18,994 nucleotides of DNA from Acidobacteriota bacterium (GTDB taxonomy: Bacteria > Acidobacteriota > UBA6911 > JACQSX01), in the NCBI GenBank assembly GCA_036507075.1, contig DASXQR010000091.1:1-18994 (forward strand), written 5' to 3'. The notes beneath the pieces are model-generated. The model did not search any database. It was not told where the DNA came from and saw only the letters and a list, made by a program, of their open reading frames with translations. The position numbers and the translations under genes are program-made. Of the stretch, positions 3,643 through 18,994 are shown one piece after another; positions within the stretch are counted from its first letter, which is position 1; each line of letters starts with the position of its first letter.

Positions 3643-3903
3643 CCCGGATTATTCATAAACTGGACAACGAACTGCAACCCCAACCACTCCTGCAACAGTG
3701 TGATGCTTATATCTGCCGACTGCCGATTGGTCATAGTGCTTTCACCGCAGAGTCGCCGAGATCGCCGAGGTCTCGCAGAGTTGCAGTCCAGCCTCTGCGA
3801 AATCTCAGCGTACTCTGCGCCTCGGCGGTGAATGCAATTGTGGCCGGCTTGCAGATATGTGCTGGGGCGATACGCCTGCTTCTCGGTTTATGAATAATCC
3901 GGG
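3643..3903. mobile_element. MITE-like element: 18-bp perfect terminal inverted repeats, TAAG direct repeat on both flanks, internal palindrome
   Basis: CCCGGATTATTCATAAAC (3643-3660) pairs with GTTTATGAATAATCCGGG (3886-3903). TAAG lies at 3639-3642 and 3904-3907. No transposase inside. Confidence 0.75.
3741..3832. repeat. Imperfect palindrome with ~9-nt CGCMGAG-type units nested inside the MITE-like element
   Basis: TTCACCGCAGAGTCGCCGAGATCGCCGAGGTCTCGCAGAG (3741-3780) versus CTCTGCGAAATCTCAGCGTACTCTGCGCCTCGGCGGTGAA (3793-3832). Confidence 0.85.
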
Positions 3904-3970
3904 TAAGGGAGCGCAGGAATGGAAAATCTTGCTAACTCCCGAAAAAACTTGGCTTTGCTGTAAGCCTTTT

Positions 3971-3996
3971 TGAAACGCTTGGATCTAATATTCGTA
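3971..3996 (+). promoter_or_regulatory. Putative ECF sigma-factor promoter for the receptor-VWA operon
   Basis: TGAAAC-N16-CGTA is an exact match to the SigW-type ECF consensus and lies about 160 nt upstream of ATG 4154. Confidence 0.5.
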
Positions 3997-4153
3997 CAGC
4001 ATAAGAGTACTCACGCCCAGGACTGGCAGGCCATGTGGTAGCGGCATGTTATCTCAGTGGCGGGAGTAACGGGCCTGGTTGCGCGGTCTTGTTCACTGTC
4101 CAGTGTGGGCAAGGCCGACGCAGCCGGGCAGATTTGTGATTGACGGCCATCAT

Positions 4154-7100
4154 ATGAAGCCAGCTCCGGCCATCCTGGCCGTGTTTGCCTCTGTTCTTAT
4201 TACCGCCTTCGGGGCTGAAACATTCAAGCTGAGCGGTACGGTTCGCGATTCCAAAAAGAGCGCCGTTGCGGGCGCCAGCGTGATGCTCGTGCAGCCCGGC
4301 ACATCGTTCCGCCGCGCAACGCGAAGCGATATCGCCGGCGCCTATGGATTTGCGGACATCCCTGCGGGCAGCTACCAACTCGTGGCACAAGGCCCTGCAG
4401 GAGTTGCCATGCAGCCGGTTTCGCTCAAATCTAAGAACTCGGTCGTCGACCTTCAACTCGCGCCTCCCTCCCAGAGCTCCGCCTTTTCATCCCTTGCCGC
4501 ATCCGGCGGGCCGCCCTCCGCCCCCGGTGGACCGTACACTGACACCAGCGGATCGACTGCCACCCTCGGTTCGTCGCCTGCCCCTGCCGCCGGTGCTTCG
4601 GAGGCTTTCCCGGAGCTGAACTTTAATCTGCCCCAGGCAGGCGCCTCCGGTTCGGCTGGAAGCGGCGGTGCTCCGGCGCCCGACTCGGTAACAATCATCA
4701 GAAGCGGCGCCATGCCGGAGTTCACTCCGTTTGGCATGGGAATGGGTGGTTTCGGCGATGACGAATTTCGACGGCCGGATGCGCGATCCAGAAGAGGCAA
4801 CAACGCCAGGCGAGACTCAAGAATGCCGAATGGGATTCGACCCGGAGCTCCGGCCGGGGCGAGAGAACCGGGCGCTGGCGGACCCGTGATCATCCAAGGG
4901 CCCATGGGTGGAATGGCGGGAGGAATAGGAGGAGGCGGCATGGCCGGCGGCGGCGGCCCGGGGGTGATGATCTACAGCCGGATGGGAGGCGCCCGCGCCA
5001 ATCGCCTGCAGGGAGGGGCTTCGCTCGGACTTCGCAGCTCGGCCCTGGACGCGCGACCCTATGCTTTGCTGGGCGAGGAAATTCCCGACCACCCGTACGA
5101 CGACGAGAACGTGGGTTTGAATCTAGGCGGTCCACTCTTTTTCCAGAAAGGGAAATCGCAGAATCGACGGGCCGCGCCCCAGTTTTTCCTGAACCTAGGC
5201 CTGAACCGCGGAAACGATTTGTTCACCGCCTTTTCAACGGTTCCCACGGCACTGGAAAGAAGCGGCGATTTTTCACAGTCCCGCTATGCCTCGGGCCCGC
5301 TTGCCGGACAGACAGTCAGAATCGCAAATCCTTTCGCGCCGGGACAGGCGTTTTCCGGAAGCCGGATTCCACAGGCGCTGATGGATCCCGCAGCGGCTGT
5401 CCTGCTCTCGTTCATGCCGCTGCCCAACCTGGAAGGACCCCAGAACTATTTCATCAATCGCAGCATCGGAAACCGAGGTCACAATTTCGGACTGACGTTT
5501 AATCTTCCGATCAACAATCAGATGCGCCTTAATTCCGGCGTGAATACAGGCAATCGAACCGGCGACGCTGCTAATCTCTTTCCGAATCTGGGAGGAGAAC
5601 GCACCACCAGTTTTGAAATAATTCGCGTCGGTCTTAACCACACTATCCGCCGCGGTCTAGTGGAAAACGGAAATGTCTCTATGTCGCGAAACCGGACGGA
5701 GGCATTGAACGGCTTTGCATTCCGGCGCGACCTGGAAGGAGAACTGGGAATCAGCGGCGTTTCGCGCCAGCCGGTAAACTGGGGAGTTCCCTCAATCATG
5801 TTTACCAACTTCGGCGATCTTCAGGATCTGAACGGATCGATCAGCGCCTTTCAGTCTTTGCGCTCCGACTACGGCCTGAATTGGATCCGGGGTTATCACT
5901 CCCTGCGCTTTGGCGCATCACTGACTCGGACTCTTCAAAATACTATTTCTGATGCCAACGGTCGCGGCACCTTCACATTTTCAGGTTTCGCAACCAGCCT
6001 CTTCAGCCGCGCGGGACTGCCCGTCCCTGGGACGGGATTTGATCTGGCCGATTTCCTGCTCGGTCTCCCCCAGAGCACCACAGTCCGCTATGGTTCGCCG
6101 GACTCTTATTTAAGGAATTGGGAATGGAGCGGATACGTGGAAGACAACTGGAAGCTTCATCCCCGGGTCACCTTCAATTTAGGCGTGAGGTACGATTTGA
6201 TCACGCCGGGCGTGGAGAAATACAACCGCCTGTCGAACCTGGACATTGCTCCGACTTTTACCGCCGCCGAGGTTGTCCTGGCGGGTGATACGGGAACGTT
6301 TTCCGGCGAGCTGCCAAGAAGTCTTATTTTCGCCGACAAGAACAATTTCAGCCCGCGGATAGGTGTGGCGTTCAAGCCGCGGGCCGACAACAGCCTGGTG
6401 GTTCGCGCGGGTTATAGTGTTTTTTACAATGACCATATTTATCGCCAGCTAACGCGGAAGCTTGTTTCGCAGCCGCCCTTCTCTTTCTCACAGAGGCTGC
6501 TCACGCAACCCGATCGCGTGCTGACTTTGCGGGACGGCTTTCCGCCGGACGATCGTCCCATCACAAACTCGATTGCCATTGATCCCCGGTATCGCACCGC
6601 GTACGTGCAGAGCTGGAATCTCAGTCTGCAGCAGCGGTTGCCCTGGAGACTGGTGGGCTCACTCACTTACCAGGGCAACAAGGGAACTCATCTGGACGTG
6701 CTGCGGGCGCCGAATCGCGCCCCTGCCGGTTCGTCGCTGGACACGGACTCGCGCCGGCGCATCGGCAACGCTCAGGAGTTTCTGTATCAGAGCAGCGGCG
6801 CTTCATCTTCGCTTCATTCTTTAAATGTCTCCGTACAGCGGCGCTTCGCCGGTGGATTCATGGCCAACGGAAATTACAACTTCGGCAAGTCCATCGACTA
6901 CATGTCTTCCGTGGGCGGAGGGTCGGGCATCGTGGTACAGAATGACGACGACCTGAGGTCCGAGCGAGGCCTGTCAAGTTTTGACGTGCGCCACCAGCTT
7001 TTCATCAACAGCATGTGGCAGCTTCCCTTTGGAGACCGAAGACGTTACTTCTCAGGTCCCGGGCTGGGACGCAAGCTGCTGGGAGGCTGGACCATTTCGC

Positions 7101-7531
7101 CGAATCTGGAAGTCACGAGCGGGCGGCCTTTCACGGCGCGCATTTCGGGCAATCAGATCAACAACAGCGGCACCGGCTCGTACGGCTCCGAACGCGCCAG
7201 CGTGACCGGGCAGCCGGTTGAAATCGATAACCAAACGACGGCGCACTTCTTTAACACCGGCGCCTTCACACTGCCCGCGCCGGGGCGGTTCGGGAACGCC
7301 GGGAGAAATACCATCCCCGGCCCGGGATCCTTCCGGTTGAACTTTACGCTGAATCGCGCCTTCCAGGTAAATGAACGGCAGCGATTGATGTTTTCCCTGT
7401 TCGCCATCAATGCCACCAATCACCCAAATTTTCAGAACATTGACACCGTGGTGAACCGCTTCAGCTTCGGCCAGGTGACCAGCATGGGACCGATGCGCCA
7501 GATTCGGGTGAACATGCGGTATTCGTTCTAA
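4154..7531 (+). CDS. TonB-dependent receptor-like outer-membrane beta-barrel (acidobacterial Oar/Cna-B type) with N-terminal carboxypeptidase-regulatory-like domain
   Basis: Signal peptide from ATG 4154 (MKPAPAILAVFASVLITAFGA); LSGTVRDS...VAGASV...GSYQL domain; YVEDNWKLHPRVTFNLGVRYD, DKNNFSPRIGVAF, FGNAGRN; C-terminal RQIRVNMRYSF beta-signal. Confidence 0.88.
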   Translation: MKPAPAILAVFASVLITAFGAETFKLSGTVRDSKKSAVAGASVMLVQPGTSFRRATRSDIAGAYGFADIPAGSYQLVAQGPAGVAMQPVSLKSKNSVVDLQLAPPSQSSAFSSLAASGGPPSAPGGPYTDTSGSTATLGSSPAPAAGASEAFPELNFNLPQAGASGSAGSGGAPAPDSVTIIRSGAMPEFTPFGMGMGGFGDDEFRRPDARSRRGNNARRDSRMPNGIRPGAPAGAREPGAGGPVIIQGPMGGMAGGIGGGGMAGGGGPGVMIYSRMGGARANRLQGGASLGLRSSALDARPYALLGEEIPDHPYDDENVGLNLGGPLFFQKGKSQNRRAAPQFFLNLGLNRGNDLFTAFSTVPTALERSGDFSQSRYASGPLAGQTVRIANPFAPGQAFSGSRIPQALMDPAAAVLLSFMPLPNLEGPQNYFINRSIGNRGHNFGLTFNLPINNQMRLNSGVNTGNRTGDAANLFPNLGGERTTSFEIIRVGLNHTIRRGLVENGNVSMSRNRTEALNGFAFRRDLEGELGISGVSRQPVNWGVPSIMFTNFGDLQDLNGSISAFQSLRSDYGLNWIRGYHSLRFGASLTRTLQNTISDANGRGTFTFSGFATSLFSRAGLPVPGTGFDLADFLLGLPQSTTVRYGSPDSYLRNWEWSGYVEDNWKLHPRVTFNLGVRYDLITPGVEKYNRLSNLDIAPTFTAAEVVLAGDTGTFSGELPRSLIFADKNNFSPRIGVAFKPRADNSLVVRAGYSVFYNDHIYRQLTRKLVSQPPFSFSQRLLTQPDRVLTLRDGFPPDDRPITNSIAIDPRYRTAYVQSWNLSLQQRLPWRLVGSLTYQGNKGTHLDVLRAPNRAPAGSSLDTDSRRRIGNAQEFLYQSSGASSSLHSLNVSVQRRFAGGFMANGNYNFGKSIDYMSSVGGGSGIVVQNDDDLRSERGLSSFDVRHQLFINSMWQLPFGDRRRYFSGPGLGRKLLGGWTISPNLEVTSGRPFTARISGNQINNSGTGSYGSERASVTGQPVEIDNQTTAHFFNTGAFTLPAPGRFGNAGRNTIPGPGSFRLNFTLNRAFQVNERQRLMFSLFAINATNHPNFQNIDTVVNRFSFGQVTSMGPMRQIRVNMRYSF

Positions 7532-7532
7532 C

Positions 7533-7606
7533 CCCTGGCCCTTTGATGGTGTCTTGGTGGTTGACAGTTTTGTGAACCACCAAGGCACCAAGGCACCAAG
7601 CCAGGG
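7533..7606. repeat. Intergenic hairpin with 8-nt CACCAAGG tandem units
   Basis: CCCTGGC...GTGTCTTGGTGGTT / AACCACCAAGGCACCAAGGCACCAA...GCCAGGG immediately after the receptor stop codon. Confidence 0.8.
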
Positions 7607-7631
7607 ACCTTGCTCGGAGTAGCATTTCAAA

Positions 7632-9689
7632 ATGAAGAGACTGGCATTCATTCTCATTCTGATTCCGTTTGCGGCGAGCAATCTGCTGCCGCAAATAGCC
7701 AGGACTCGCCCGCGTGTCCGTTTTCAGGTGACCGCCGAGCTGGTGCTTGTTGACGTGCGCGCGCTCGACTTGAAAAGCCACCCGGTAGCCGGCCTGAAAG
7801 CGACCGATTTCGAAGTACTGGAAGACGGCGTGCCACAGCGCATCGAAAGTTTTCGGGAAGTCAACATCTCCTCCGACAGGCCTGCTCAGACGGCGCAGAG
7901 CGCCCCTCTGGTAATTCCCTACCGGCGCGAAGACGTGGAAATTCCGCTGGAAAAGGTGACCCAGTATCGACTCTGGGTGGTGCTGTTCAACTTTGCCGGA
8001 ATGGATGCCGAGCAGATGCTTTCATCCACTCGCTCAGTCAAAAAGTTTGTTGCCGAAACAATGGGCGCCGATGACCTGATGGCCGTATTCCTCTACAACG
8101 GCGAGCTGCGGCTGATATCGAATTTGACCAATGATCGCCAGAGTCTCAGTCGTGAACTTGACAAGCTGGACAAAGAGCCTCCGGTGAGCGCGGATACCGC
8201 TTCTGCTGACAATGCAGATGCCGGCGACCCGTCGAGCGACGAAGCAGGTGAGCCCATCGCGGATGACCAGGAATTTGCCATGTTCGATACCAACCGGCAA
8301 TTCATCGCGCTGCAGTCCGTGCTTCAGTTCTATCGGGAAGTCCCCACGCGAAAGTCGCTGCTCTACTTTTCTTCCGGCATTCGCAATCAGGATGCGGACA
8401 ACTACGAAGAACTGAGCCGCACTACCAGCATTGCCAACCGCGCCAACGCCAGTATCTACTCGGTGGATGCGCGTGGTTTGGTCGCATTGGCCCCGGGAGG
8501 AGGGGCAAGAGATCGCGGACCTAAAGGCGAAGGAATGTTCACGGCAAAAAAAGTGAACGATCAGTTTGCAAATCTTGCGGCCAGCCAGGAAACACTCGAA
8601 GCTCTGGCGAAAGACACCGGTGGAAGGGCGCTTGTCGACTCAAACGACTTCGGAAAAATCTTTAAACAGGCGCAGCAGGATACTTCCAATTACTACCTCC
8701 TCGGTTATTACTCCAGCAGCAGCCGTAGAGACGGCAAATTCCGGAAGATTGAAGTTCGCAGCCGCGTCCCCAACCTGAAGGTCAGCTTTCGTAAGGGTTA
8801 CAACGGCCCCAAGTCCTACCTGACACTTACGTCCGAGGAAAAGGAAGAGTTTCTGGAGCGAGCGATCATTTCCCGCCAGCGGCCCGAACAATTCGGAATT
8901 GATTTGCGCGCCGATTCGTTTTACCGGGCAGCCGATCAGGTGCTGATTCCGCTCAGTCTTAAGTTCTTCAAAAAGGAACTGCTCAAGGAAGGCGAGCGCG
9001 GACAGAAGCTGGATCTTGTAGGGTTTGCCCAGGACCCGCAGGGTGAAGTGGTTCAAACACTCAGAGATTCGCTTGAGATCAAGCCCGGCGACACCGGCAC
9101 GTCCATCCTGTATCAAAACGCTTTCCTGGTGAAGCCCGGCATTTACAGCTTGACGTTTTATGCCCGCGAGAATCTGGAAGGCCGGGTCACCTCAGTAGAG
9201 CAAACGGTGAAATTGCCGCCGCGGCCGGCGCAGCTAAGCACCAGCAGCGTCGTTTTCGGAACGCAGTTGATAGAAAACAGCAATCCGCACTTTGAAATAA
9301 CGAAGGCCGGCGCCAAGCACAATGAGGCGATCACCATTGAATCGCCTCTGAAAATCGGAAACAGTGAGATCGTGCCCTCTACCGATCGGGTTTTCGCCCG
9401 CTCCAAGCAGTTTTATGTTTTGTTTCACGCCTACAACGCGCGGTTGTCGGAAGGAAAAGCAAGAGTCAAGGTGACCGCATCCATCCAGAACAGTTCCGGC
9501 AAGACGCTGGGTGACGCGCCATCGGTCAGTTTCCAGTCAATTGACAATACCACCGGCGGCGTTCCCTGCCATATGCGCTTTCCGCTGTCCAAGCTCACGC
9601 CGGGAAAATACCTGCTCAAACTGGAGGTGCTGGATGAGGCAAGTTCCGAAAAGGTCAGGCTGGAAGAATCTTTCGAAGTGACGGCCTAG
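7632..9689 (+). CDS. Secreted VWA-domain protein (VWFA-related acidobacterial type) with C-terminal Ig-like region
   Basis: Signal peptide; FQVTAELVLVDVRA, VAGLKATDFEVLEDGVPQRI, RKSLLYFSSG, IYSVDARGL, LAKDTGG, YYLLGY...DGKFRKIEV...RKGY; C-terminal LTPGKYLLKLEV. Confidence 0.88.
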   Translation: MKRLAFILILIPFAASNLLPQIARTRPRVRFQVTAELVLVDVRALDLKSHPVAGLKATDFEVLEDGVPQRIESFREVNISSDRPAQTAQSAPLVIPYRREDVEIPLEKVTQYRLWVVLFNFAGMDAEQMLSSTRSVKKFVAETMGADDLMAVFLYNGELRLISNLTNDRQSLSRELDKLDKEPPVSADTASADNADAGDPSSDEAGEPIADDQEFAMFDTNRQFIALQSVLQFYREVPTRKSLLYFSSGIRNQDADNYEELSRTTSIANRANASIYSVDARGLVALAPGGGARDRGPKGEGMFTAKKVNDQFANLAASQETLEALAKDTGGRALVDSNDFGKIFKQAQQDTSNYYLLGYYSSSSRRDGKFRKIEVRSRVPNLKVSFRKGYNGPKSYLTLTSEEKEEFLERAIISRQRPEQFGIDLRADSFYRAADQVLIPLSLKFFKKELLKEGERGQKLDLVGFAQDPQGEVVQTLRDSLEIKPGDTGTSILYQNAFLVKPGIYSLTFYARENLEGRVTSVEQTVKLPPRPAQLSTSSVVFGTQLIENSNPHFEITKAGAKHNEAITIESPLKIGNSEIVPSTDRVFARSKQFYVLFHAYNARLSEGKARVKVTASIQNSSGKTLGDAPSVSFQSIDNTTGGVPCHMRFPLSKLTPGKYLLKLEVLDEASSEKVRLEESFEVTA

Positions 9690-9690
9690 T

Positions 9691-9900
9691 GCCCGGATTA
9701 TTCAAAACTTTAACCGCCAAGACCGCTAAGACCGCCAAGATGGCGCATAGGACGGGGCTGAAACTTGAAGGATGAAGGCAGCAGGCCAAACGATTGACGC
9801 GGGCTTTGATGACCTTCATCCTTCAAGTTTCAGCCCCGTCCTATGCGCTATCTTGGCGTTCTTGGCGCTCTTGGCGGTTAAGATTTTGAATAATCCGGGC
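9691..9900. repeat. 210-bp near-perfect palindrome (88-bp arms, 34-nt loop) ending in the same CCCGGATTATTCA terminus; MITE-like; between convergent genes
   Basis: Arms 9691-9778 and 9813-9900 differ at 6 positions. The outer 17 bp and inner 36 bp (9743-9778 / 9813-9848) are perfect, with ~9-nt CGCCAAGA-type units between. Confidence 0.92.
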
Positions 9901-9910
9901 CAGCAGGCCG

Positions 9911-10210
9911 CTACCTAATCTCGTAAATGCGGGCGCCGGCCAGGTAATCGTACTTCAGAACTTCGGTCAGATGGATTGATCGGCCATCGTAGACGTGTCG
10001 GACTCCGTGGACCTCGCTGTATTTCCCGTCGCGGCTGACAATTTTGACCTTCTTCAGCTCGTCAATCTTGGTCGCATCGTCCACCAGCAGGAAATCTTCA
10101 TACTTAAACGTGTCCTGGAAGAGCCGCGTCATCAAGACATTCGTTTCCGCGCGCGCAACGGTCCATGTCAGTGCCGAAACCAGAACTAGAAGAATCATTC
10201 TAGCCTTCAT
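9911..10210 (-). CDS. Small secreted hypothetical protein (99 aa)
   Basis: AGGAG SD upstream of ATG 10210; signal peptide MKARMILLVLVSALTWTVARA|ET. No family recognised. Confidence 0.75.
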   Translation of the reverse strand: MKARMILLVLVSALTWTVARAETNVLMTRLFQDTFKYEDFLLVDDATKIDELKKVKIVSRDGKYSEVHGVRHVYDGRSIHLTEVLKYDYLAGARIYEIR

Positions 10211-10295
10211 TTTGTCTTCTCCTGATGAGTGAGACTGCAAATCCAGTCTAAATCATTGCGAAGTGTAAGACCAGTGGGGGGTTACGGTTTGTGAG

Positions 10296-10418
10296 GTTGA
10301 GCACGAATTTCCACGAATCTCACGAATTTCACGAATCCTTTGAACTACTTTGTGAAATTCGTGGTCAAGTTAAGGGATTCATGAAATTCGTGGAAATTCG
10401 TGGAAATTCGTGCTCAAC
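10296..10418. repeat. Palindrome with CACGAAT(TT) tandem units between divergent genes
   Basis: GTTGAGCACGAATTTCCACGAAT (10296-10318) is the perfect reverse complement of 10396-10418. There are four CACGAAT units on the left and several ATTCGTG units on the right. Confidence 0.9.
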
Positions 10419-10437
10419 TGGAAGCTGGTTTGACTGA

Positions 10438-11452: not shown

Positions 11453-12832
11453 TCACTCGACCGCGTACCCGGCATTGATCCAGGCGCTGGTTCCGCCCAC
11501 AACATTAAACAAATTTCGAAAACCATAACGTGCCAGCACGCTGGTTGCGATGCTGGAACGATAGCCTCCCGCACAGATTACCGCGGTGGGGCGGTCGCGG
11601 TCCGGGAGCCCTGATTTCTCACCAAGATCAGCCAGTTGAATGTTTACAGCACCCGGCACGTGCCCCTGCTTGAATTCAGCCGGGCGCCGTACATCCACTA
11701 CGCCCAGATCGCTTTTCTGGCGCATTCGATGCTGCAGCTCATCCACGGTAATTTGCGGGATGGTGTTCAGTTCAAATCCCTCCTTGTCCCAGGAATAAAT
11801 TCCTCCATCAAGAAAACCCTGCACTGTATCGATCCCGACTCGTGCCAGCCGCATCACGGCCTCGTCCACTTGCGCGAGATTTTCAGAAACGATCAAAATG
11901 GGAGTTCCCATTTGAACCATTGTGCCTGCCCAGGAAGCGAACTGCCCTCCCAAGCCGATGTTCAGAGCTTTCGGAATATAGCCGGCGCCAAACTCTGCGG
12001 CCGCCCGAACATCCAGAATCTCATGACCCCGAAGGCTGCGCGCAGCAAATTCCCGCGCCGACAATTCATCGGGACGCGGCAACTCGTCCAGAGCGCGTGC
12101 GCCGGTGCGGTTTAGTTCTGCATCCTTGGGGAAATACTTCGGAATCTCGGGCATGTCGGTTGTCATCATGTGAACAAACTCTTCCCGACTCATCGGCTTC
12201 AGCGCGTAATTGAATCTTCTCTGCTCCCCGATCGTCGACACGGTTTCGCGCGAAATGTTCCTCCCGCACAGAGATCCCGCGCCATGAGCAGGGTACACCT
12301 CTGTACGGTCGTCAAGCTTCATCAACTTTTCATGGAGGCTGTCATAGAGCTGCGCAGCCATGGTCCTGGCGTCATACCCCCGGCTGCCCACCAGGTCCGG
12401 TCGGCCGATGTCGCCAATGAAAAGAGTGTCACCGGTGAGAACCCTCCCGGGCGCTTCCGGCGCCTCCGTATCGATAACTAGAATAGAGATACTTTCGGGG
12501 GTATGACCCGGCGTTTCGAAGAATCGCAGTACAACTTTTCCGAGCCTCAGTTCCTCCCCATCCCGCACGGCAATATGCTCAAAGGACGCCCCCGCCCTGC
12601 TACCGAAGACCACACGTGCCCCCGTCCGTGACGCAATTTCACGGTGCCCGCTGACAAAGTCGGCATGAAGATGGGTTTCAATCACGTATTTGATCTGCAG
12701 GCCTTGCGCGCCTGCTGCTTCAAGATACTGCTGTACGTCGCGCTGGGGATCGACAACGACTCCCTCTCCTTCGGAACCGATCAGGTAGGAAGCATGCGCC
12801 AGACACCCAAGGTAAAACTGCTTGAAGTACAT
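11453..12832 (-). CDS. MBL-fold metallo-hydrolase / persulfide dioxygenase-like protein fused to two rhodanese domains
   Basis: ETHLHADFVSG, TPGHTPES, TGDTLFIGDIGRPDL, YPAHGAGSLCG; rhodanese LDVR and VVDVR...GHVPGA; C-terminal active loop CAGGYRS. Confidence 0.92.
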   Translation of the reverse strand: MYFKQFYLGCLAHASYLIGSEGEGVVVDPQRDVQQYLEAAGAQGLQIKYVIETHLHADFVSGHREIASRTGARVVFGSRAGASFEHIAVRDGEELRLGKVVLRFFETPGHTPESISILVIDTEAPEAPGRVLTGDTLFIGDIGRPDLVGSRGYDARTMAAQLYDSLHEKLMKLDDRTEVYPAHGAGSLCGRNISRETVSTIGEQRRFNYALKPMSREEFVHMMTTDMPEIPKYFPKDAELNRTGARALDELPRPDELSAREFAARSLRGHEILDVRAAAEFGAGYIPKALNIGLGGQFASWAGTMVQMGTPILIVSENLAQVDEAVMRLARVGIDTVQGFLDGGIYSWDKEGFELNTIPQITVDELQHRMRQKSDLGVVDVRRPAEFKQGHVPGAVNIQLADLGEKSGLPDRDRPTAVICAGGYRSSIATSVLARYGFRNLFNVVGGTSAWINAGYAVE

Positions 12833-12864
12833 GGCCGTCTCCGGTCAGAACACGCGTTGTCCGC

Positions 12865-12999
12865 TCAACCTGCGTGGCGCTTCTCCGCGCGCTCTTTCAA
12901 CTTGGATTCGGTGGCGTTCTGCTTCCGATGCAGGGCCACGATATAAACAAAGAGCACTGTCCAGATAAGCGTGTAGGCCGTGAAGAGATAGAAGTTCAT
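12865..12999 (-). CDS. ccmD: Heme exporter protein CcmD (44 aa)
   Basis: ATG overlaps the ccmC stop (ATGA). MNFYLFTAYTLIWTVLFVYIVAL is a single TM followed by a basic/charged tail; operon position fits. Confidence 0.8.
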   Translation of the reverse strand: MNFYLFTAYTLIWTVLFVYIVALHRKQNATESKLKERAEKRHAG

Positions 13000-13658
13000 G
13001 CCAGCCCTCCGTGACCGATCCCAATCCGATATTCCTGGTCTTTCTGCTGCACGCGCAAATGCAGCAGCACCGCGTACAGGACCACGAAGGCGCCCAGCGC
13101 GACAAACATGGTGATCTTCATCTCCCGCTCGAGGTTCATGCCTTTCGACGTAATCACCACGGGATGTATGGAGCGCCACCAGCGAATCGACATGAACGTA
13201 ATGGGCACATCAATGAAAGCAATAATCCCCAGGATGGCGGAAATACGATACTTCCTGTCGCTTTCTTCCATGTTGGCGCGCAGCAGCAGATAGGCCACAT
13301 ACATCAACCACAACATTAGAAAGGTGGTGAGCCGGGGGTCCCAGGTCCACCAGGTATTCCACACCGGCTTGGCCCACAAAGGGCCCGTTATCAGAACCAG
13401 AGTACTGAAAATAACGCCGATTTCCGCGCTCGCCGAGGCCCAGGTGTCGTATCTTCTCACGCCCGTCGCGAGGTAAGCGACGCTGAAGACAAACAGTATA
13501 AAGTACGCGAGAAAGCTGAGCCACCCGAGCGCAAAGTGAAAATAAAAGATGCGCTGCACTTCTCCCATCACCGCCTCGCGCGGAGCGTAAAGGAACGCGC
13601 AGTAAAGCGCAAGAACCATCATTGGATAGAGCAGGACAAGAAGAAAGCTTCTCATCAT
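12996..13658 (-). CDS. ccmC: Heme exporter protein CcmC
   Basis: WWD motif WAKPVWNTWWTWDPRLT with flanking His residues (IFYFH, WRSIHP); multiple TM helices. Confidence 0.93.
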   Translation of the reverse strand: MMRSFLLVLLYPMMVLALYCAFLYAPREAVMGEVQRIFYFHFALGWLSFLAYFILFVFSVAYLATGVRRYDTWASASAEIGVIFSTLVLITGPLWAKPVWNTWWTWDPRLTTFLMLWLMYVAYLLLRANMEESDRKYRISAILGIIAFIDVPITFMSIRWWRSIHPVVITSKGMNLEREMKITMFVALGAFVVLYAVLLHLRVQQKDQEYRIGIGHGGLA

Positions 13659-14335
13659 TCCCCCAGCACGTAATCAAACACCACCAAAGCGGCAGCGAAG
13701 AATATCAGGTCGAAAACAACCATCATTCCCATCCAGTGCCAGTTCTCAATTTCACCGGTAAGCTTCAGAGCCTGCCGCATCAACTGCACGGATGCGATCA
13801 GCAGTGGAACAATGATCGGGTAAAGCAGGATCGAAACGACCACCTCGCGCAACCGCGTGCTTTCCGCCATCGCGCCAAACAGCGTTCCCACTGCCGCCAT
13901 TCCTGCCGCCGCCAGCGGACAAACCGCCGCCAGCAGCCACATTCTCCAGCTGACGGAGACGTCGAAGAAGATTATAAACAGCGGAAGAGTCAGCGTCATC
14001 AGAAGAAGGATGACGCAAAAGTTTGTGAGGAACTTTCCCACGAAAATCCACGCCGGGTCCAGCGGCAGAAGAGCGAGCGCGTGAATTGCGCTTTCAGCAC
14101 TCTCACGCTGAAAGGTGCGGGAAAGTGTCAGCGCGGACGCAAAAACAACGGCAATCCAGAATATCGCCGCCTTACCTTCGACAATGGCCGCCGATCCCGG
14201 GTCGAAACCGAAATTGAAAAGGATAAGCACCAGCAGCGCAAAGAAAAGATTGGAGAGAAAACCTTCTCTGCTTCGAACTTCGAGAACAAGGTCTTTTCTC
14301 AGAATCGCCAGCGCTGCGTTCAACCCTTCTCGCAT
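13655..14335 (-). CDS. ccmB: Heme exporter protein CcmB
   Basis: ILRKDLVLEVRS, FQRE, IFVGK, LLYPIIVPLLI; about 6 TM; between ccmA and ccmC. Confidence 0.9.
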   Translation of the reverse strand: MREGLNAALAILRKDLVLEVRSREGFLSNLFFALLVLILFNFGFDPGSAAIVEGKAAIFWIAVVFASALTLSRTFQRESAESAIHALALLPLDPAWIFVGKFLTNFCVILLLMTLTLPLFIIFFDVSVSWRMWLLAAVCPLAAAGMAAVGTLFGAMAESTRLREVVVSILLYPIIVPLLIASVQLMRQALKLTGEIENWHWMGMMVVFDLIFFAAALVVFDYVLGE

Positions 14336-14424
14336 GTGGGTGTATTAATCGTCAATTCCCGGTCGCAGGGGCAGCCTGACATGGCAGCTCCCCGGGTTGT
14401 CGCCGGTTAAATCGGGCAGCCATG

Positions 14425-15060
14425 TTAGGCCGCCCCTACAAGTTTCTCCACAACTTTGCCGTTGCCTACCTCAAACTGCCGAGTCGCCACAGATCGCGCC
14501 AATTCGACCTGATGAGTGACCATTACCACAGTCCGGCTTCGGATCCACTGCAGGAAACTCGACACGAATCCGCTGTCGAGCGCATTGAAAGGTTCGTCCA
14601 GTAGCAGGATCTCGGGATCGTGCAGCAGCGCCCTTGCAACTGAAAGCCGCTGCTTCATGCCGGCTGAATAGAAGCGGACGCGCCGCTGCGCCGCCTCTCC
14701 ATCCAGGCCCACCTGTGCCAGAAGAGACCGGCATCTGTCGCGACCCAAACCGCGCAAGGCGGCAAAAAACAGCAGATTCTCCTCGCCGCTGAGATCCGGA
14801 TACAGCAAGGATTCGTGTCCGAGATACCCCATGCGCCGGCGGAAAAGTCGCAAACCGGCGCGATCTTCGTAAAAAGAAATAGAACCGGAAGTAGGTGGCG
14901 TCAGGGAGGCGAGTATCTTCAGCAGCGTCGATTTTCCGACACCGTTGGGACCGAACAGCAGAATTCGATCCTTCTCCCTCAGCTCAAACTGGATATTTTG
15001 CAGAACGGGACGTGTGCCGTAGACCTTGTCAACTCCAGAGAGTCTGACGATGGGGGCCAT
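14425..15060 (-). CDS. ccmA: Heme ABC exporter ATP-binding protein CcmA
   Basis: Walker A GPNGVGKST, YLGH, signature YSAGMKQRL, Walker B LLLDEPF, H-loop VTHQ; ccm operon context. Confidence 0.9.
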   Translation of the reverse strand: MAPIVRLSGVDKVYGTRPVLQNIQFELREKDRILLFGPNGVGKSTLLKILASLTPPTSGSISFYEDRAGLRLFRRRMGYLGHESLLYPDLSGEENLLFFAALRGLGRDRCRSLLAQVGLDGEAAQRRVRFYSAGMKQRLSVARALLHDPEILLLDEPFNALDSGFVSSFLQWIRSRTVVMVTHQVELARSVATRQFEVGNGKVVEKLVGAA

Positions 15061-15374
15061 CAGGCTTTTTTCTTCAGTGCTCTTTTCGAGGAACGCGTGG
15101 TCTGAACCGTTTCTATCTGTTTGAGAACTTCAATTGCCTTCAGCTCGGACTCCTTCTTCAGAATCTCATAATCATGCGGCGACAGTTTGCCCATACGGTA
15201 ATCAAGCTCGATGTCTTTGAGCGAAAGATAAGCTTCTTCTTTTTCATTCAGCAGCTCATCCAGACGAGTTTGGCTGCGCAGGTCCGCCGGGGATTCCTCG
15301 GGCGCGCGAAAAAAGGGATGGGCAATGAAAACGAGCAAAGCCAGAAACAGCAGCGCGGCGACCAGTTCGGTCAA
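15060..15374 (-). CDS. Small membrane protein resembling the CcmI/CycH N-terminal region
   Basis: N-terminal TM ending in HPF, then LKDIELDYRMGKLSPHDYEILK helix motif; translationally coupled to ccmH and ccmA; no TPR region. Confidence 0.65.
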   Translation of the reverse strand: MTELVAALLFLALLVFIAHPFFRAPEESPADLRSQTRLDELLNEKEEAYLSLKDIELDYRMGKLSPHDYEILKKESELKAIEVLKQIETVQTTRSSKRALKKKA

Positions 15375-15847
15375 TCTATCTTCTCCAGCTCTTCATTCAT
15401 TCTCTGGCGATAACTGTCAGCGACCGGCGAAGCTTCAGACCGGGCGGCCTGGCGTTCCACGTCCGCTTCCTGCTTTTCCGCAGCCGCCTGCCAGTGTTTC
15501 ATCTTGACCACGAGAAATACGCCCGCAACGAAAATCCCCAGGAATGGCAGCACCCAGGCCGTAAGATTGAATCCCGACTTGGGAGGAGCCGCTAAAACCG
15601 AGATGCCGCCCTTGTTGACGTATTGCGCCAGAATCTGCTCTTTGGTCTTCCCTTCCTGCAGCATCTTCTCTACTTCTTTGGTCGTCTGATCCGCCAGTCC
15701 ACAGCCGCAGACGGAAACCGTCTTGTTGCCGCAACCGCACAGGCAAACCAACTGCGAAGTGACATCCTGCACCTGCTCCTTTGTCACCCCAGCGATTGAG
15801 GGCGAAATAGTCAGAATCATCAACGCCAGAAGAAATCGGAACCACAT
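15371..15847 (-). CDS. ccmH: Cytochrome c biogenesis protein CcmH (Cys-rich variant)
   Basis: Signal peptide from ATG 15847 (AGGTGA SD); LVCLCGC...VCGCG; GKTKEQILAQYV..G..VLAAPP.SGFNLTAWVLP is typical of CcmH; C-terminal TM. Confidence 0.85.
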   Translation of the reverse strand: MWFRFLLALMILTISPSIAGVTKEQVQDVTSQLVCLCGCGNKTVSVCGCGLADQTTKEVEKMLQEGKTKEQILAQYVNKGGISVLAAPPKSGFNLTAWVLPFLGIFVAGVFLVVKMKHWQAAAEKQEADVERQAARSEASPVADSYRQRMNEELEKID

Positions 15848-15863
15848 ATCATTCACCTGCAAT

Positions 15864-16088
15864 TGCGGAATTCGGAATGCGGAATGCGGAATAAGACGAA
15901 TGTGCGGAATTCGGAACGCGGAATGCGGAATGTCGAATAAGACGAATACTTCATAGGTGATGGACAGTCAGATAAATTTCCTGGGATTTTCCTTCCTTAT
16001 TCCGCATTCCACATTCCGCATTCCACATTTCCACATTTCCGCATTCCGCATTCCGCATTCCGCATTCCGCATTCCGCATTCCGCATTC
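15864..16088. repeat. Inverted arrays of 7-nt units (GCGGAAT)n ... (ATTCCGC)n between ccmF and ccmH
   Basis: The left arm 15864-15947 is itself a ~40-nt duplication ending AATAAGACGAAT. The right arm 15996-16088 has about 13 ATTCC(G/A)C-type units. Confidence 0.93.
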
Positions 16089-16092
16089 AAGA

Positions 16093-18108
16093 TCATGCCG
16101 CATGCTTCTGCGCCTGGCGCACCGTTTTTGCCAGCGCTTTTCGCTGCCGGTTGGGCAGCATTACAAACAGCGTTCCGAGCACCATTACAAAACCGCCGAA
16201 CCAGATCCAACCCACCAGCGGCTTGATGTACATCTTAAAAGTGGCGGTCTGTTTACTATCCCAGCCCACAAGCACGATGTAAAAATCCTCATCAAACTGG
16301 GACATGATGTCCACTTCCGTCTGCGGCTGGTCGCTCTTGAAATGGAAGTGCTTCTCGGGCCGCATGGTGGCCAGCTTTTTTCCGTTCCGGTAAAGATCCA
16401 CGCGCGCCAGGGTAACCTCCTTGTTCACTTCCCGCCTCTGGCCGAAACTGCGATAGGTGAACGTATAGTGCTTCAACCGGCCCGTTTCTCCTGGTTTCAA
16501 GACGAAATCCTGTTCCATACCAAAAAATGAAGATGCGATTATTCCGATGAAAACAATCACCACGCCCGTGTGCACGATGAATCCGCCGTAACGGCGTTTG
16601 TTACTGGTGACCAGCATATACAGGGCCCTGTAGAACGGCTCGTCCTGATCGCTTTCGATCTTTCCCGCCTGGCGCGCGCGCGCTCCCTTCCAGAATTCCC
16701 AAACCACGGTGGCCATGACGAAGGCGCAACCTGCAAAATAAGCCACCGGCACAAACTTCCGGATTCCCAGCGCCATCACCACCGGCACCGCCAGCAATCC
16801 GGTGATCAACGGGTAAAGAAAGTTGCGCTGAAAGTTCTTTACGCTTGCCTTGCGCCACGCAATCAGGGGGCACACCCCGGTGAGCACCAGCAGGGCAAAC
16901 GCCAGCGGCAGGTTGACGTTATTGAAAAACGGCAGCGAGACGGATACCTTCACACCGCGCACCGCCTCTGAAACGATGGGAAATACGGTCCCCCAAAAAA
17001 CGGCAAAGGCGATTCCCAGAAAGAGCAGGTTGTTGAACAGAAATGAACTTTCACGCGAGAAGAAGGCGGCAACACGCTCTTCAGGCTCAAGCTGTCTGTT
17101 CTGAAGCCTGCGAAAGAGAAAGAACAACGAAATGGCAAGGGAGATTCCCAGGAATACAACAAAGAAGCTCCCGATCCCCGACTGCGTGAAGGAGTGCACC
17201 GACGACACCACACCGCTGCGGGTCAGGAAGGTTCCGAAAATGCACATTTCGAAGGTCATGATGATCAACGAAAGGTTCCAGACCTTCAACATTCCCTTCT
17301 TCTCCTGAATCATCACCGAGTGAAGAAAGGCGGTGCCCAACAGCCAGGGCATGAAACTGGCGTTCTCCACCGGATCCCAGGCCCAGTAGCCTCCCCAGCC
17401 CAGTTCCAGATAGGCCCAGTGGGCGCCCATGAATATCCCGATGGTCAGAAACATCCACGCAACCAGCGTCCAGCGGCGCGTAGTCTTGATCCAGACCGGG
17501 TTGAGATTGTTGCTGATCAGTGCTGCCATGCCGAAAGCGTAGGGGACGGTGAAACCGACAAGGCCCATGTAAAGATGAGGCGGGTGGATGACCATCCAGT
17601 AATTCTGCAGCAAGGGATTCAGACCCGTGCCATCGGGAGGACGGGGCAAGCCCATCGATTGGAAAGTCTGAAAGGGAGGAGTGACAAAGGTCAGCAGGCT
17701 AAGAAAGAAGAGCATCACTCCTGACAGCACGCTGCAGACGTAAGGCATCAGTTCCCGGTTCTTGGTCTGGTTCTGAAAAACCGCAACCACCGAGTAGACC
17801 GACAGAATCAGAGTCCAGAAAAGCAGTGATCCCTTCTGACCGCCCCAGAATGACGTGATCCGGTAATGCATCGGCAGATCGAGGCTGGTATAGCTGGCTA
17901 CATACTCGTTGTTAAAATCACCGTGTACCAGCAGTGAGACCAGGGATGCGGAGGCGAGGGCAATCAGCAGAAAAGCGCCGATAACGGCGTTCTCGGCGCT
18001 CTGCGCGAGGGCGGCATTTGATTTCCGTCCGGCCACCGCGCCTGCAACCAGACCGTAAGCCGTTACCACGAAGGCCGCCGTCAGGCAGTAAAAACCAAAC
18101 TCATTCAT
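16093..18108 (-). CDS. ccmF: Cytochrome c heme lyase CcmF
   Basis: WGGQKGSLLFW, GLNPLLQNYWMVIHPP, WAYLELGWGGYWAWDPVENASFMPWL, FLHS, LTRSGVVSSVHSF, SRES, GGFIVHTG. ATG 18108 is preferred to TTG 18117. Confidence 0.96.
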   Translation of the reverse strand: MNEFGFYCLTAAFVVTAYGLVAGAVAGRKSNAALAQSAENAVIGAFLLIALASASLVSLLVHGDFNNEYVASYTSLDLPMHYRITSFWGGQKGSLLFWTLILSVYSVVAVFQNQTKNRELMPYVCSVLSGVMLFFLSLLTFVTPPFQTFQSMGLPRPPDGTGLNPLLQNYWMVIHPPHLYMGLVGFTVPYAFGMAALISNNLNPVWIKTTRRWTLVAWMFLTIGIFMGAHWAYLELGWGGYWAWDPVENASFMPWLLGTAFLHSVMIQEKKGMLKVWNLSLIIMTFEMCIFGTFLTRSGVVSSVHSFTQSGIGSFFVVFLGISLAISLFFLFRRLQNRQLEPEERVAAFFSRESSFLFNNLLFLGIAFAVFWGTVFPIVSEAVRGVKVSVSLPFFNNVNLPLAFALLVLTGVCPLIAWRKASVKNFQRNFLYPLITGLLAVPVVMALGIRKFVPVAYFAGCAFVMATVVWEFWKGARARQAGKIESDQDEPFYRALYMLVTSNKRRYGGFIVHTGVVIVFIGIIASSFFGMEQDFVLKPGETGRLKHYTFTYRSFGQRREVNKEVTLARVDLYRNGKKLATMRPEKHFHFKSDQPQTEVDIMSQFDEDFYIVLVGWDSKQTATFKMYIKPLVGWIWFGGFVMVLGTLFVMLPNRQRKALAKTVRQAQKHAA

Positions 18109-18130
18109 GAATGACAACCTGTAAAAAAAT

Positions 18131-18188
18131 TCACCACAAAGGCACGAAGAACACTAGGAATCTTTGTGTCTTTGTGCCTTTGTGGTGA
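18131..18188. repeat. Intergenic hairpin with CACAAAG(G/A) units between ccmE and ccmF
   Basis: TCACCACAAAGGCAC (18131-18145) and GTGCCTTTGTGGTGA (18174-18188) form a perfect 15-bp inverted repeat flanked by A and T runs. Confidence 0.85.
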
Positions 18189-18243
18189 TTTTTCCACAAC
18201 TGCAACGTTGGGGCGGCCCTGATAGCGATGATTCTCAAAAATC

Positions 18244-18708
18244 CTACTTCACCGGCTCAGACTTGAAATTGGTTTGCATGCCATACTTCTTCTGGTGCTC
18301 CCGGCCGACTTCGGTGTTGTACTGGCTTTCGTATTTGGACGGGCACTTGGCCATGAGCGTGTGAGCCCTGAACAAACCGCGATCCGGCGTCATCCTGCCT
18401 TCAAGAACCACTTCCGAGTTGTCCTTGAAAGTGTCGGGAACCACTCCCGTGTACCGAACCGGCAGAGTTGCTCCTCCCTCAGCCATGACAAAGTCGACTG
18501 TCATCGTGCTGGGGTCCTTCCGGATGGTTCCTGGGACCACTCTGGCCGCGACGCGCACATCCTCGGTTGGAGAACCGGGCTTTGCCATCAATTCAGACAG
18601 CTTAAAATAATAAACGGTCGCTTGCGTGCTCCCGGTGAACATCAGATAGGCGATACCCACGACGATAACCGAGGCAGCAACCATCAGTTTCAGTCGCCCT
18701 TTCCCCAC
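18244..18708 (-). CDS. ccmE: Heme chaperone CcmE, CxxxY variant
   Basis: AAGGAG SD plus GTG start; N-terminal TM; VRYTGVVPDTFK, VVLEG, LMAKCPSKY (Cys in place of His). Confidence 0.93.
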   Translation of the reverse strand: MGKGRLKLMVAASVIVVGIAYLMFTGSTQATVYYFKLSELMAKPGSPTEDVRVAARVVPGTIRKDPSTMTVDFVMAEGGATLPVRYTGVVPDTFKDNSEVVLEGRMTPDRGLFRAHTLMAKCPSKYESQYNTEVGREHQKKYGMQTNFKSEPVK

Positions 18709-18769
18709 TTAAGTCTCCTTTGTGCAGCAGGATAACAAGTAATTCTAACAGACCGGACGCGGTTAGACA

Positions 18770-18994
18770 AGGGATGGAGGGATGGAGGGATGGAGGGACG
18801 GAGAGAGGGAGGGATTGAGGGACGGAGAGAGGGAGGGATTGAGGGACGGAGGAATGGAGGGATGGAGGGATTGAGAGACAGAGGGACGGAGGGATTGAGA
18901 GACGGAGGGAAAGAGAGGTGAAGAGAAAAGCATTCGCGTCCCTCCATCTCCCCTCCATCTCTCTATCCCTCTATCTCTCCATCCCTCCATCCCT
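18770..18994. repeat. Purine-rich 8-nt (GGGATGGA-type) tandem array followed by its pyrimidine-rich inverse, truncated at the window end
   Basis: GGGATGGA x3, then GGGACGGA/GGGATTGA variants to about 18910; TCCCTCCATC... units from about 18939 to the end. Confidence 0.9.

Follow-up and report, generated by a model that had tools for sequence, protein, structure and literature searches.

The intergenic hairpins on a contig of an Acidobacteriota bacterium are read here, with a probability of roughly 0.45, as gene-less copies of cassettes that encode a GxxExxY or a four-helix-bundle protein, spread by the matching protein during natural transformation. A cassette consists of a single GxxExxY (PF13366, PD-(D/E)XK) or four-helix-bundle (PF05635) gene between inverted tandem-repeat arms. 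Six of the nine elements in the window, which is the whole of contig DASXQR010000091.1 (GCA_036507075.1, positions 1-18,994), match the arms of one specific cassette elsewhere in the genome, as judged by 8-mer sharing; a link to these two gene types that a sequence-only reading of this DNA had named for other bacteria therefore holds here. The matched cassettes carry the same promoter-like motif as DNA-uptake genes, which suggests that the hairpins spread at DNA uptake.

Repeat Hairpins of the Window

Hairpin strength was expressed as the RNA-fold z-score against 50 dinucleotide shuffles. All seven intergenic hairpins of the sequence-only reading were found in place, with z-scores of -5.3 to -26.0, far beyond the shuffles, and TRF recovered the tandem arrays (Table 1); the two single arms gave a z of about 0.1. 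As that reading had held, the elements spare recognised open reading frames, none of them overlapping a called gene.

Table 1. Repeat elements of the window, with fold z-scores or other basis.
Position	Strand	Element	Basis or remark
1-31	.	Right half, CACCAAG-type back-to-back element	Sequence; cut by contig start
39-74	.	AACCCG-type right arm	TRF 42-73
3643-3903	.	Composite MITE-like element, 261 bp	IS1380-like terminal inverted repeats
about 3741-3835	.	Inner hairpin CACCGCAGAG...CTCGGCGGTG, CGCMGAG unit, inside the 3643-3903 composite	z -6.2
7533-7606 (arms about 7546-7562 and 7576-7600)	.	Back-to-back hairpin CTTGGTGGTT...ACCACCAAG	z -5.3
about 9691-9900	.	Three-layer palindrome	z -26.0
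10296-10418	.	CACGAATTT-armed hairpin, between divergent genes	z -11.6
11364-11395	.	Lone GTTACGG left arm, directly past stop codon	TRF
15864-16088	.	GCGGAAT-armed hairpin, ccmF-ccmH junction	z -9.2
about 18124-18194	.	CACAAAGG-armed hairpin, ccmE-ccmF junction	z -8.0
18770-18994	.	GGGATGGA-armed hairpin, upstream of ccmE	z -6.4; cut by contig end

The layout of several elements had to be revised. The hairpin first placed at 3741-3832 is only the inner part of a composite with terminal inverted repeats CCCGGATTATTCATAAAC, which seven other loci cover to at least 70% at 92-96% identity. The palindrome at 9691-9900 folds as described but is built in layers, with IS1380-like outer ends, CGCCAAG arms (9713-9740 and 9851-9876), a non-repetitive inner stem of ~40 bp (about 9740-9779 and 9813-9850) and a variable loop; coverage of it reaches 70% or more at 45 loci, always below 90% identity, and arm changes in this family are mirrored between the arms. 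At 7533-7606 a hairpin does exist, but its arms (7546-7600) stand back to back, right arm before left, an order found at 51 loci vs 4 in the other order. The composite to which the CACCAAG half at 1-31 belongs also occurs on C122, C140, C82, C228 and C223. The two apparent single arms differ: 11364-11395 is truly lone, and contigs from two sequencing runs (X1 and X2) bridge across it, but 39-74 adjoins the contig start after the CACCAAG half, so its partner may be unassembled.

Fold-back or collapsed repeats introduced by assembly are a very improbable source of these structures. Contigs do break at the repeats (for 47 arms the distance to a contig end is at most 60 nt), and the element at the window end is common to three contig ends. 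The final 141 nt of this element overlap with the beginning of contig C227 (reverse strand), a contig that runs on into an atpE-like gene, named from sequence, as in the relative G001; because contig C231 ends in those 141 nt too, the join at the window end is ambiguous. However, contigs from a second study bridge three of the nine elements (7546-7600 and 11364-11395, both in X1 and X2, and 18131-18188) with unique flanks and exclude an artefact there, and the arms are imperfect, the loops differ and the same layout recurs in many other genomes.

Comparison with relatives showed that the elements are not fixed at orthologous positions, since the ccmE-ccmF and ccmF-ccmH junctions are empty in all three same-family genomes compared (G001, G002 and G004). 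The near-identical X2 strain lacks one 8-nt unit at 18124-18194 and shows no whole-element absence; likewise, among the matches listed, no joint in the assembled contigs skips a whole element with unique flanks.

Genome-Wide Families

The genome holds at least 655 such intergenic elements of fixed polarity, which fill at least 106 kb (1.7%), occupy every gap type and lie inside essential operons too. Arrays are intergenic in 2797 of 3224 cases, although the genome was called as 18% non-coding, and inverted pairs within 300 bp number 691, compared with 31-51 in five shuffles. Units do differ within the window, as had been noted, yet each recurs across the genome at about 50-220 loci and thus forms a family; the elements are therefore copies belonging to several REP-like families. 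One polarity prevailed for the CGCMGAG-unit hairpin (3742-3835; 71 loci vs 6 in reverse order), for the CACGAATTT-armed hairpin (82 vs 3) and for GCGGAAT, the largest family, in which all 142 pairs share one polarity. The GCGGAAT pattern has 199 overlapping matches in this genome and is present in 2 of 150 other genomes of the phylum.

Independent families are nested in one another, and arm changes are mirrored in 31 cases vs 7.6 expected, with 14 unmirrored. For tandem-armed elements no target duplication could be defined. Family members elsewhere in the genome, empty junctions and cassette matches together support the earlier proposal of a non-autonomous mobile or recombination system represented here by empty elements, and from them we infer movement.

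An origin by local replication slippage and template switching, the products being kept as regulatory RNA or DNA structures with no dedicated mobiliser, would account for the strain difference of one unit, the mirrored arms and the 1429 of 2797 arms, about half, for which no partner was detected. Pairs are also somewhat commoner between convergent genes (140/714 vs 384/3006 co-directional), and a regulatory role was assigned to comparable repeats in earlier papers (PMC2700814; PMC4692102; PMC4679880). This origin is nevertheless improbable and already weakened, because an exact 19-mer terminus at 69 places and a loop consensus of 43-44 nt are common to many loci, and non-repetitive features shared in this way need descent by copying. 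Fixed polarity and the occupation of every gap type also speak against it, as do the absence of all seven hairpins from the terminator-like sites listed and the lack of any Rfam match in the window. A diversity-generating retroelement does not fit: loop variation, mostly transitions, affects all four bases and is not adenine-specific, and the full-length reverse transcriptase reads on inspection as a group II intron type, with no four-helix gene adjoining.

Cassettes With Matching Arms

The matches single out one cassette each by shared 8-mer hits. The arm at 39-74 shares 56 with a broken four-helix-bundle cassette on C73 (others at most 4), and the unit of the lone arm at 11364-11395 is common to the four-helix-bundle cassette on the same contig (38 vs 1). 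GxxExxY cassettes on C37 and C140 match the hairpins at 7533-7606 (21 vs 6) and 10296-10418 (37 vs 3), one on C83 matches the arms of 9691-9900, and a truncated one on C152 matches 18124-18194. A weaker match links 3742-3835 to GxxExxY cassette arms in the relative G004 (11 hits, runner-up 7). The GxxExxY cassettes on C83, C140, C37 and C152 are flanked on both sides by their cognate repeat, of which many gene-less copies exist. Full, truncated, promoter-only and empty cassettes form decay series (C152, C82 and C192), with deletion intermediates connecting full and empty forms, and several cassettes of this genome are broken.

Partner genes for the GCGGAAT, GGGATGGA and CGCAGAG families were not found in the 96%-complete assembly. 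For GCGGAAT a matching four-helix-bundle cassette does exist in other phyla, and 25 GCGGAAT-armed cassettes of one protein subfamily were counted in five phyla. GCGGAAT loops resemble the cognate gene no more than shuffles do. The two partner-less families GCGGAAT and GGGATGGA, the broken cassettes, the loop result, the lack of a definable target duplication and the X2 strain without whole-element absence weigh against the preferred reading. When four-helix proteins of different genomes were paired, the unit was shared in 7 of 13 pairs with an identity of 60% or more, as opposed to 1-2% of 731 more distant pairs, kin being non-independent.

The GxxExxY proteins have invariant residues E27, D67, E77, K79, Q91 and Y95 in 118 sequences, and the best structural matches of a model were Cas4 proteins, at weak scores (best E 0.006; none at or below 0.001). 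The four-helix protein has one relative of solved structure, PDB 2GSC (XCC0516) of Xanthomonas. To our knowledge, neither protein is a known transposase, and we know of no catalytic role for the four-helix bundle; both points, like the weak Cas4 match, count against the preferred reading.

An outer shell is present on two of the nine window elements. The 3643-3903 and 9692-9899 elements have IS1380-like ends, which the others do not. These ends (CCCGGATTATTCATA) are similar but not identical to those of L127 (CCCGGATATTTCATA), the IS1380-family copy of the genome. The first is flanked by TAAG on both sides (3639-3642 and 3904-3907), the second by no such repeat. Among 53 short shells genome-wide, a direct 4-bp repeat was found at 10 and an inverted one at 19, six CTAG/CTAG cases counting as both.

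Such ends, and the TAAG repeat at one of the two elements, accord with a view in which the hairpins depend for movement on RAYT-like Y1 transposases, on IS1380-type transposases or on host recombination, the GxxExxY and four-helix genes being cargo whose arms act at the RNA level only, by looping the insert out of mRNA or as RNase III substrates. The genome has 12 Y1 matches, most with the competence-type motif described below; cassettes in other phyla fit tightly into the gap from one stop codon to the following start codon, without the motif; and an intervening sequence that RNase III excises encodes a related protein family (PMC4990558). Against this view, none of the 12 Y1 matches is flanked by these repeats. 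The Y1 genes inspected have their own non-tandem hairpins or none (six were scored for arm sharing), and the sole overlap, on C85, comes from a distinct GCGGAAT element that lies downstream of a Y1 cassette. The unit also tracks the protein subfamily across genomes, which is unexpected of passive cargo, and this account is judged quite unlikely. Of three GIY-YIG matches, one short gene was inspected; it follows a tRNA-like sequence and has no such arms.

A Competence-Type Motif

The motif TTCGCA-N17-GTTATG was derived from host genes only (comEA, comEC, comF, comM, dprA, recA and others, named by NCBIfam and Pfam) and called at a score of at least 14. It lies upstream of 6 of 7 four-helix, 5 of 6 GxxExxY and 9 of 12 Y1/RAYT-like genes, against a background of 44 of 4532 genes, and is common to cassette genes and to comEA, comEC, comF, comM, dprA, radC, recA and ssb. 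It is missing at lexA and at either uvrA, so SOS genes do not share it. Judged from sequence, it may be a promoter for competence, recognised by an ECF sigma factor encoded on contig C17. Neither the motif nor the IS1380-like shells had been noticed by the sequence-only reading.

Within this bacterial family the motif lies inside the arms of most cassette genes, including 13 of 19 cassettes in family relatives. It is missing from all 30 four-helix cassettes sampled across the phylum and from all five other-class-family ones, and outside the family the strict pattern occurs at control level, so the competence wiring may be local. Three unrelated repeat systems in this lineage share the motif, a sign that such elements may act during natural transformation.

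A domesticated filter would also involve transformation: cassette proteins would cut transforming single-stranded DNA at cognate hairpins and thereby restrict or mould recombination, the hairpins being marks kept by the host and their spread a side effect. The gene between its own hairpins and hundreds of intergenic copies, as in SsnA/NTS (PMC11893778), the motif within cassettes and the Cas4/RecB-type catalytic residues of GxxExxY all accord with this. Many independent nested families with broken or missing partners fit selfish turnover better than a kept host function, however, and the four-helix-bundle cassettes are left unexplained; the filter is thus unlikely, though somewhat less so than passive cargo. 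It is compatible with the preferred reading, not exclusive of it.

Proposed Mechanism and Significance

The elements are best read as non-autonomous and REPIN/Ssn-like, the cognate protein likely acting on the single-stranded hairpin; movement and protein activity are inferred from the patterns above. Under the preferred reading, the cassette protein would be made when single-stranded DNA enters the cell and would bind the folded arm of its own family, GxxExxY cutting the arm and the four-helix bundle holding it. Host recombination proteins might then insert the hairpin at a new site or in the loop of another element. Copies would persist mainly directly past stop codons, where genes and ribosome-binding sites are spared, and arm matching could be maintained through arm-to-arm copying or selection for pairing. 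Some hairpins may later have been captured by IS1380-like ends and would now move by ordinary DDE transposition.

A wider claim, that PF13366 GxxExxY and PF05635 four-helix-bundle proteins, two very large orphan families, drive a class of mobile DNA that needs no transposase, each recognising its own arm in incoming single-stranded DNA, seeding it at new gene junctions through the transformation machinery and keeping stems matched by copying while loops diverge, is speculative and rated below the preferred reading. If true, such a class would explain paired 7-9 nt repeats in many bacteria, and its proteins would supply many programmable recognisers of single-stranded DNA. Paired heptamers and octamers have long been noted in bacteria; the present matches tie them to specific partners and offer a direct test, namely binding or cutting of each protein's own arm in single-stranded DNA, for two large families of unknown function.

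Comparison With Known Systems

No description pairing these repeat hairpins with these partner proteins and competence was found in the literature searched. Partner-less paired heptamers and octamers, such as GGGAATC of Xanthomonas and those of Nostoc (Rehm et al., 2015, PMC4692102), similarly occur between genes as tandem arrays of 7-8 nt units, which are frequently paired in inverted orientation, with 70-75 such pairs in Xanthomonas. The 7-8 nt arrays of Geobacter metallireducens (Aklujkar et al., 2009, PMC2700814) and the TAACTGA repeats of Beggiatoaceae (PMC4679880) are likewise intergenic, with lineage-specific expansion. Unlike the elements described here, all these were read as G-quadruplexes, regulator sites or translation signals, and the available portions of the three papers connect them neither with four-helix-bundle or GxxExxY genes nor with competence. 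The ORF-bearing 23S rRNA intervening sequence (S23p, after which Pfam names PF05635) is also a selfish gene-carrying insert, excised from RNA by RNase III (Warrier et al., 2016, PMC4990558), but it lies in 23S rRNA, whereas the present elements lie between protein genes, are mostly gene-less and have tandem-repeat arms.

IS1380-family MITEs (PF13701 transposase; L127) resemble the shells in their ends, CCCGGAT...TTCATA, and in short flanking motifs such as CTAG, TAAG and CTTA; the likeness is limited to the shell of two of nine elements. REPIN/RAYT systems (REPtrons) and TIRtrons offer a parallel, comprising non-autonomous, intergenic, hairpin-forming doublets in which a spacer separates conserved ends; each repeat family has one partner gene, unrelated elements are nested, and a single-stranded intermediate has been proposed (Bertels and Rainey, 2011, PMC3116915; Di Nocera et al., 2013, PMC3733652; Bertels et al., 2017, PMC5581495). 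The present elements are inverted, extragenic, many-copy hairpin doublets of the same kind. Those systems, however, are paired with an HUH Y1 transposase and have short palindromes or long non-tandem TIRs as arms, whereas the ends here are tandem arrays of 6-10 nt units, and Y1 cassettes of the REPIN/RAYT type occur in this genome with other flanks.

In the Ssn/SRM system (SsnA/NTS), too, a small nuclease gene lies between copies of its own hairpin, gene-less intergenic copies run to hundreds, proteins and repeats are paired, and there is a link to natural transformation (Chenal et al., 2025, PMC11893778). SsnA cleaves the hairpin that flanks its gene when the DNA is single-stranded, and it modulates transformation, lowering rather than raising the integration of repeat-bearing DNA, about five-fold, which counts against the preferred reading. 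Ssn belongs to the GIY-YIG proteins, has a single domain and pairs with a hairpin of ~30 nt, in contrast to the predicted PF13366 and PF05635 partners here and to arms of 6-10 nt tandem arrays over 70-230 nt; at least 12 families coexist here, their genes bearing the competence-type motif. The design of a gene with its own hairpin, known from RAYT/REP and Ssn/SRM, is thereby extended to a PD-(D/E)XK nuclease and to a helical protein without known enzyme activity.

Hairpin Elements of the Window

The window forms the entire contig C91 of a 6.12-Mb assembly (G000; 233 contigs, completeness 95.7%) and carries greA, a Ser/Thr kinase gene, an outer-membrane barrel gene, a metallo-beta-lactamase/rhodanese gene and ccm cytochrome c maturation genes. 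Seven intergenic palindromes, each an inverted pair of short tandem arrays (arms), had been proposed in the sequence-only reading, and these were borne out, with folding z-scores of -5.3 to -26 and overlap of a called gene in 0 of 7, while two lone arms fold no better than shuffles (50 shuffles each throughout). Most of the window sequence is present in two soil-metagenome runs: X1, which may be its source, and X2, from a separate study. Contigs of X2 with unique flanks span elements 7546-7600, 11364-11395 and 18131-18188, which contradicts an assembly artefact for these three; that the elements in general are artefacts is very improbable. The X2 strain differs from the window by a few single-base changes and by the absence of one 8-nt unit at 18170, and among the joints listed none with unique flanks omits a whole element.

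Features of the window and loci elsewhere (C, contigs of G000; L, loci; cassette matches by shared 8-mers)
Location	Feature	Observation
39-74; 11364-11395	elements	match broken four-helix gene on C73
7546-7600	element	matches GxxExxY gene on C37
9709-9745	element	matches GxxExxY gene on C83
10296-10345	element	matches GxxExxY gene on C140
18131-18188	element	matches GxxExxY gene on C152
12865-13005 (-)	short ORF after ccmC	no Pfam match; probably ccmD
14343-14430	small imperfect hairpin, CCTGACATGGCAGC...GCAGCCATGTTAGG	ccmA/ccmB gap; no tandem arms; region z -1.4
15060-15374	conserved ccm-cluster ORF	no Pfam match
C17:70859-72967 (L135)	ECF-type sigma gene	motif overlaps last codons at 3' end; zf-HC2/TPR anti-sigma-like gene follows
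C146:65986-66615 (L128)	group II intron-type reverse transcriptase gene	motif site faces away, towards IrrE-like (Peptidase_M78) ORF
C12:1-2506 (L127)	IS1380-family element	adjoins another palindromic element with CTAA/TTAG flanks; similar short shells surround hairpins at ~50 loci
Upstream of C228:21110	lexA leader	includes CACAAAG-type arm
C192:99297; C97:18557; C48:57105; C28:993; C28:2407; L072; L100	further loci	motif-preceded
L084; L088	integron-type integrase genes in relative G002	motif-preceded
L060	four-helix-bundle gene in genome G158	amid short direct repeats resembling CRISPR array

Genome-Wide Families and Their Distribution

A genome-wide TRF search found periods of 7, 8 and 9 to be the most frequent (1470, 1287 and 927 of 5894 rows). 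Intergenic positions hold 2797 of the 3224 merged arrays of period 6-11, the non-coding share of the genome being just 18% by a crude gene caller. Inverted pairs no more than 300 bp apart number 691, against 31-51 after shuffling of the arm identities, and include 1368 of the 2797 intergenic arms. The merged total of at least 655 elements and at least 106 kb is a lower bound because the caller recovered just three of the seven window pairs. The units had been regarded as distinct rather than copies of one REP sequence; their distinctness stands, but each is itself a genome-wide family of about 50-220 loci. All 142 GCGGAAT pairs share a single polarity, and CACAAAG-type families have arm pairs in both orders. 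Of the 3006 co-directional gaps 384 hold a pair, as do 140 of the 714 convergent and 99 of the 718 divergent ones; across 387 co-directional gaps, the element begins a median of 15 nt past the stop codon, and its end lies 52 nt ahead of the called start.

Neither the ccmE-ccmF nor the ccmF-ccmH junction has such an element in any of the three genomes of the same family that carry a ccmF orthologue (G001, G002 and G004; ccmF protein identity 79-81%; 15 of 20 returned loci inspected, the window's own among them). The stop codon of ccmF in G002 overlaps the start of ccmH, and one distant genome, G023, carries downstream of ccmF another insert, whose outer ends are similar. In G000 the GCGGAAT pattern matches 199 times (overlapping matches counted); of 150 phylum genomes, two have 1 and 6 matches and the others none. 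Relaxing the pattern yields 1-34 matches in four family relatives. One row of the 150-genome tally and of the PF05635 tally below is an unpublished genome, G052, which enters no other result.

Change and Probable Movement of Elements

Among the 27 members of the 9692-9899 family, inner stems match at 97.8% within a copy versus 90.5% between copies, and departures from the consensus are mirrored in both arms in 31 cases (7.6 expected) and unmirrored in 14. An origin of the elements by local slippage is improbable. GCGGAAT loops (family example, C2:13689-13729) measure 43-44 nt in 44 of 131 cases, and those of 39-47 nt (n = 72) have a weak consensus, with a mean identity of 43% and no pair above 90%. 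Base changes are mainly transitions, and adenine bias is absent. A highly diverged loop of fixed length between conserved arms could reflect age and length selection, or error-prone copying. Other soil contigs contain loops of 38-40 nt between GCGGAAT arms. Nested elements (13 of 657) replace the host loop instead of sitting within it.

The outer ends of elements 3643-3903 and 9692-9899 resemble those of an IS1380-family copy, and the 3643 composite has seven further copies at 92-96% identity; these shells therefore probably move by ordinary transposition. It is unlikely that Y1, IS1380 or host enzymes carry the elements at large as passengers that have a role at the RNA level; Y1 genes in G000 are flanked by non-tandem hairpins or by none.

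Partner Cassettes and Their Proteins

Profile matches in G000 comprise nine to PF05635 (four-helix bundle; seven loci), six to PF13366 (GxxExxY) and 12 to PF01797 (Y1). A link of such arms to four-helix-bundle and GxxExxY genes, raised in the sequence-only reading, was upheld in G000: inverted tandem arms flank both, and six of nine window elements clearly match one G000 cassette by shared 8-mer counts against 29 cassette flanks. The 3742 element weakly matches a cassette in G004, and for the GCGGAAT and GGGATGGA elements the 29 include no G000 partner. Besides whole genes, deletion-type intermediates lie between arms: on C152 the right arm cuts off a GxxExxY gene, C82 retains arm, motif, gene ends and arm, and C192 retains arm, motif, short spacer and arm. 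The window elements are read as gene-less relatives of cassettes, with a probability of roughly 0.85.

Species genomes were scanned for GCGGAAT arms that enclose one short codon motif, which yielded 25 such cassettes, spread over Gemmatimonadota, Verrucomicrobiota, Planctomycetota, Acidobacteriota and Edwardsbacteria. Each of the 25 encodes a member of one four-helix subfamily (three broken), the motif being part of the search pattern and the remaining protein not. PF05635 is present in 89 of 151 phylum genomes, and the caller detected inverted arms at 27 of 50 four-helix loci. Units are shared between genomes in 7 of 13 four-helix pairs at ≥60% identity versus 1-2% of 731 below it, numbers that are small and include non-independent kin.

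Six GxxExxY residues (E27, D67, E77, K79, Q91 and Y95) are invariant across 118 sequences and correspond to a PD-(D/E)XK site with a QxxxY motif, as in RecB/Cas4-type nucleases. The top four Foldseek rows for its model (pLDDT 89) are Cas4 structures (best E 0.006, none ≤0.001). The four-helix protein, which may resemble the DGR helper Avd, has as its sole solved sequence relative the uncharacterised XCC0516 (2GSC, E 3e-8).

A Competence-Type Motif

Cassette leaders share a TTCGCAGA...GTTATGT motif, and a matrix of 18 leaders gave 63 matches above 22 bits on both strands and 0 on one shuffled strand. NCBIfam assigned 14 of the 20 non-seed targets tested, several under the curated cut-off (comEA, recA, ssb, pilin, comM/YifB, RAYT-like protein, recG, radC, comEC, recQ, XPF-type nuclease, comF, pcrA and dprA); six have no family. 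The cassette-seeded matrix being circular, it was rebuilt on 13 host genes alone. At a score of ≥14 the rebuilt matrix recovers 6/7 four-helix, 5/6 GxxExxY and 9/12 Y1 loci versus 44 of all 4532 called genes; lexA scores 0.5 and the two uvrA genes 8.5 and -4.1, and the window holds no site at ≥14.

Among family relatives 13 of 19 cassettes pass; none of the 5 from the class's other families does so, nor does any of the 30 taken phylum-wide. A strict motif pattern matches 6-65 times in five family genomes and 0-3 times elsewhere, near control. In the relatives the motif precedes recA and radC (both by inspection), comEA, comEC, a radA-like ATPase gene, a UPF0102 gene and integrases. The C17 ECF-type sigma locus is a candidate competence regulator: a second motif site lies near the gene, upstream there are an HTH_3 regulator and, in divergent orientation, a 79-aa ORF with the motif, and the orthologue keeps a nearby site in G001, with weak sites only in G002. 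Several conserved proteins without Pfam or NCBIfam match behind the motif are candidate new competence genes.

A cognate cassette protein would spread the elements during natural transformation. This full mechanism is proposed tentatively, its chances being put at somewhat less than even; an SsnA-like filter acting on incoming DNA is rather unlikely.

Comparison With Known Systems

A full-text literature search, with most subscription journals outside its reach, returned no link of arms to four-helix-bundle or GxxExxY genes. Comparison was made with PMC11893778, PMC3733652, PMC3116915, PMC5581495, PMC4692102, PMC4679880, PMC2700814, PMC3686654, PMC7494812 and PMC4990558; repeat-flanked genes are listed in the supplements to PMC3733652 and PMC2700814, which may be relevant to how new the association is. 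The hairpin elements are a real feature, of the known kind in which a gene is accompanied by its own hairpin; the new aspects are the two putative partner families and a competence link limited to the bacterial family.
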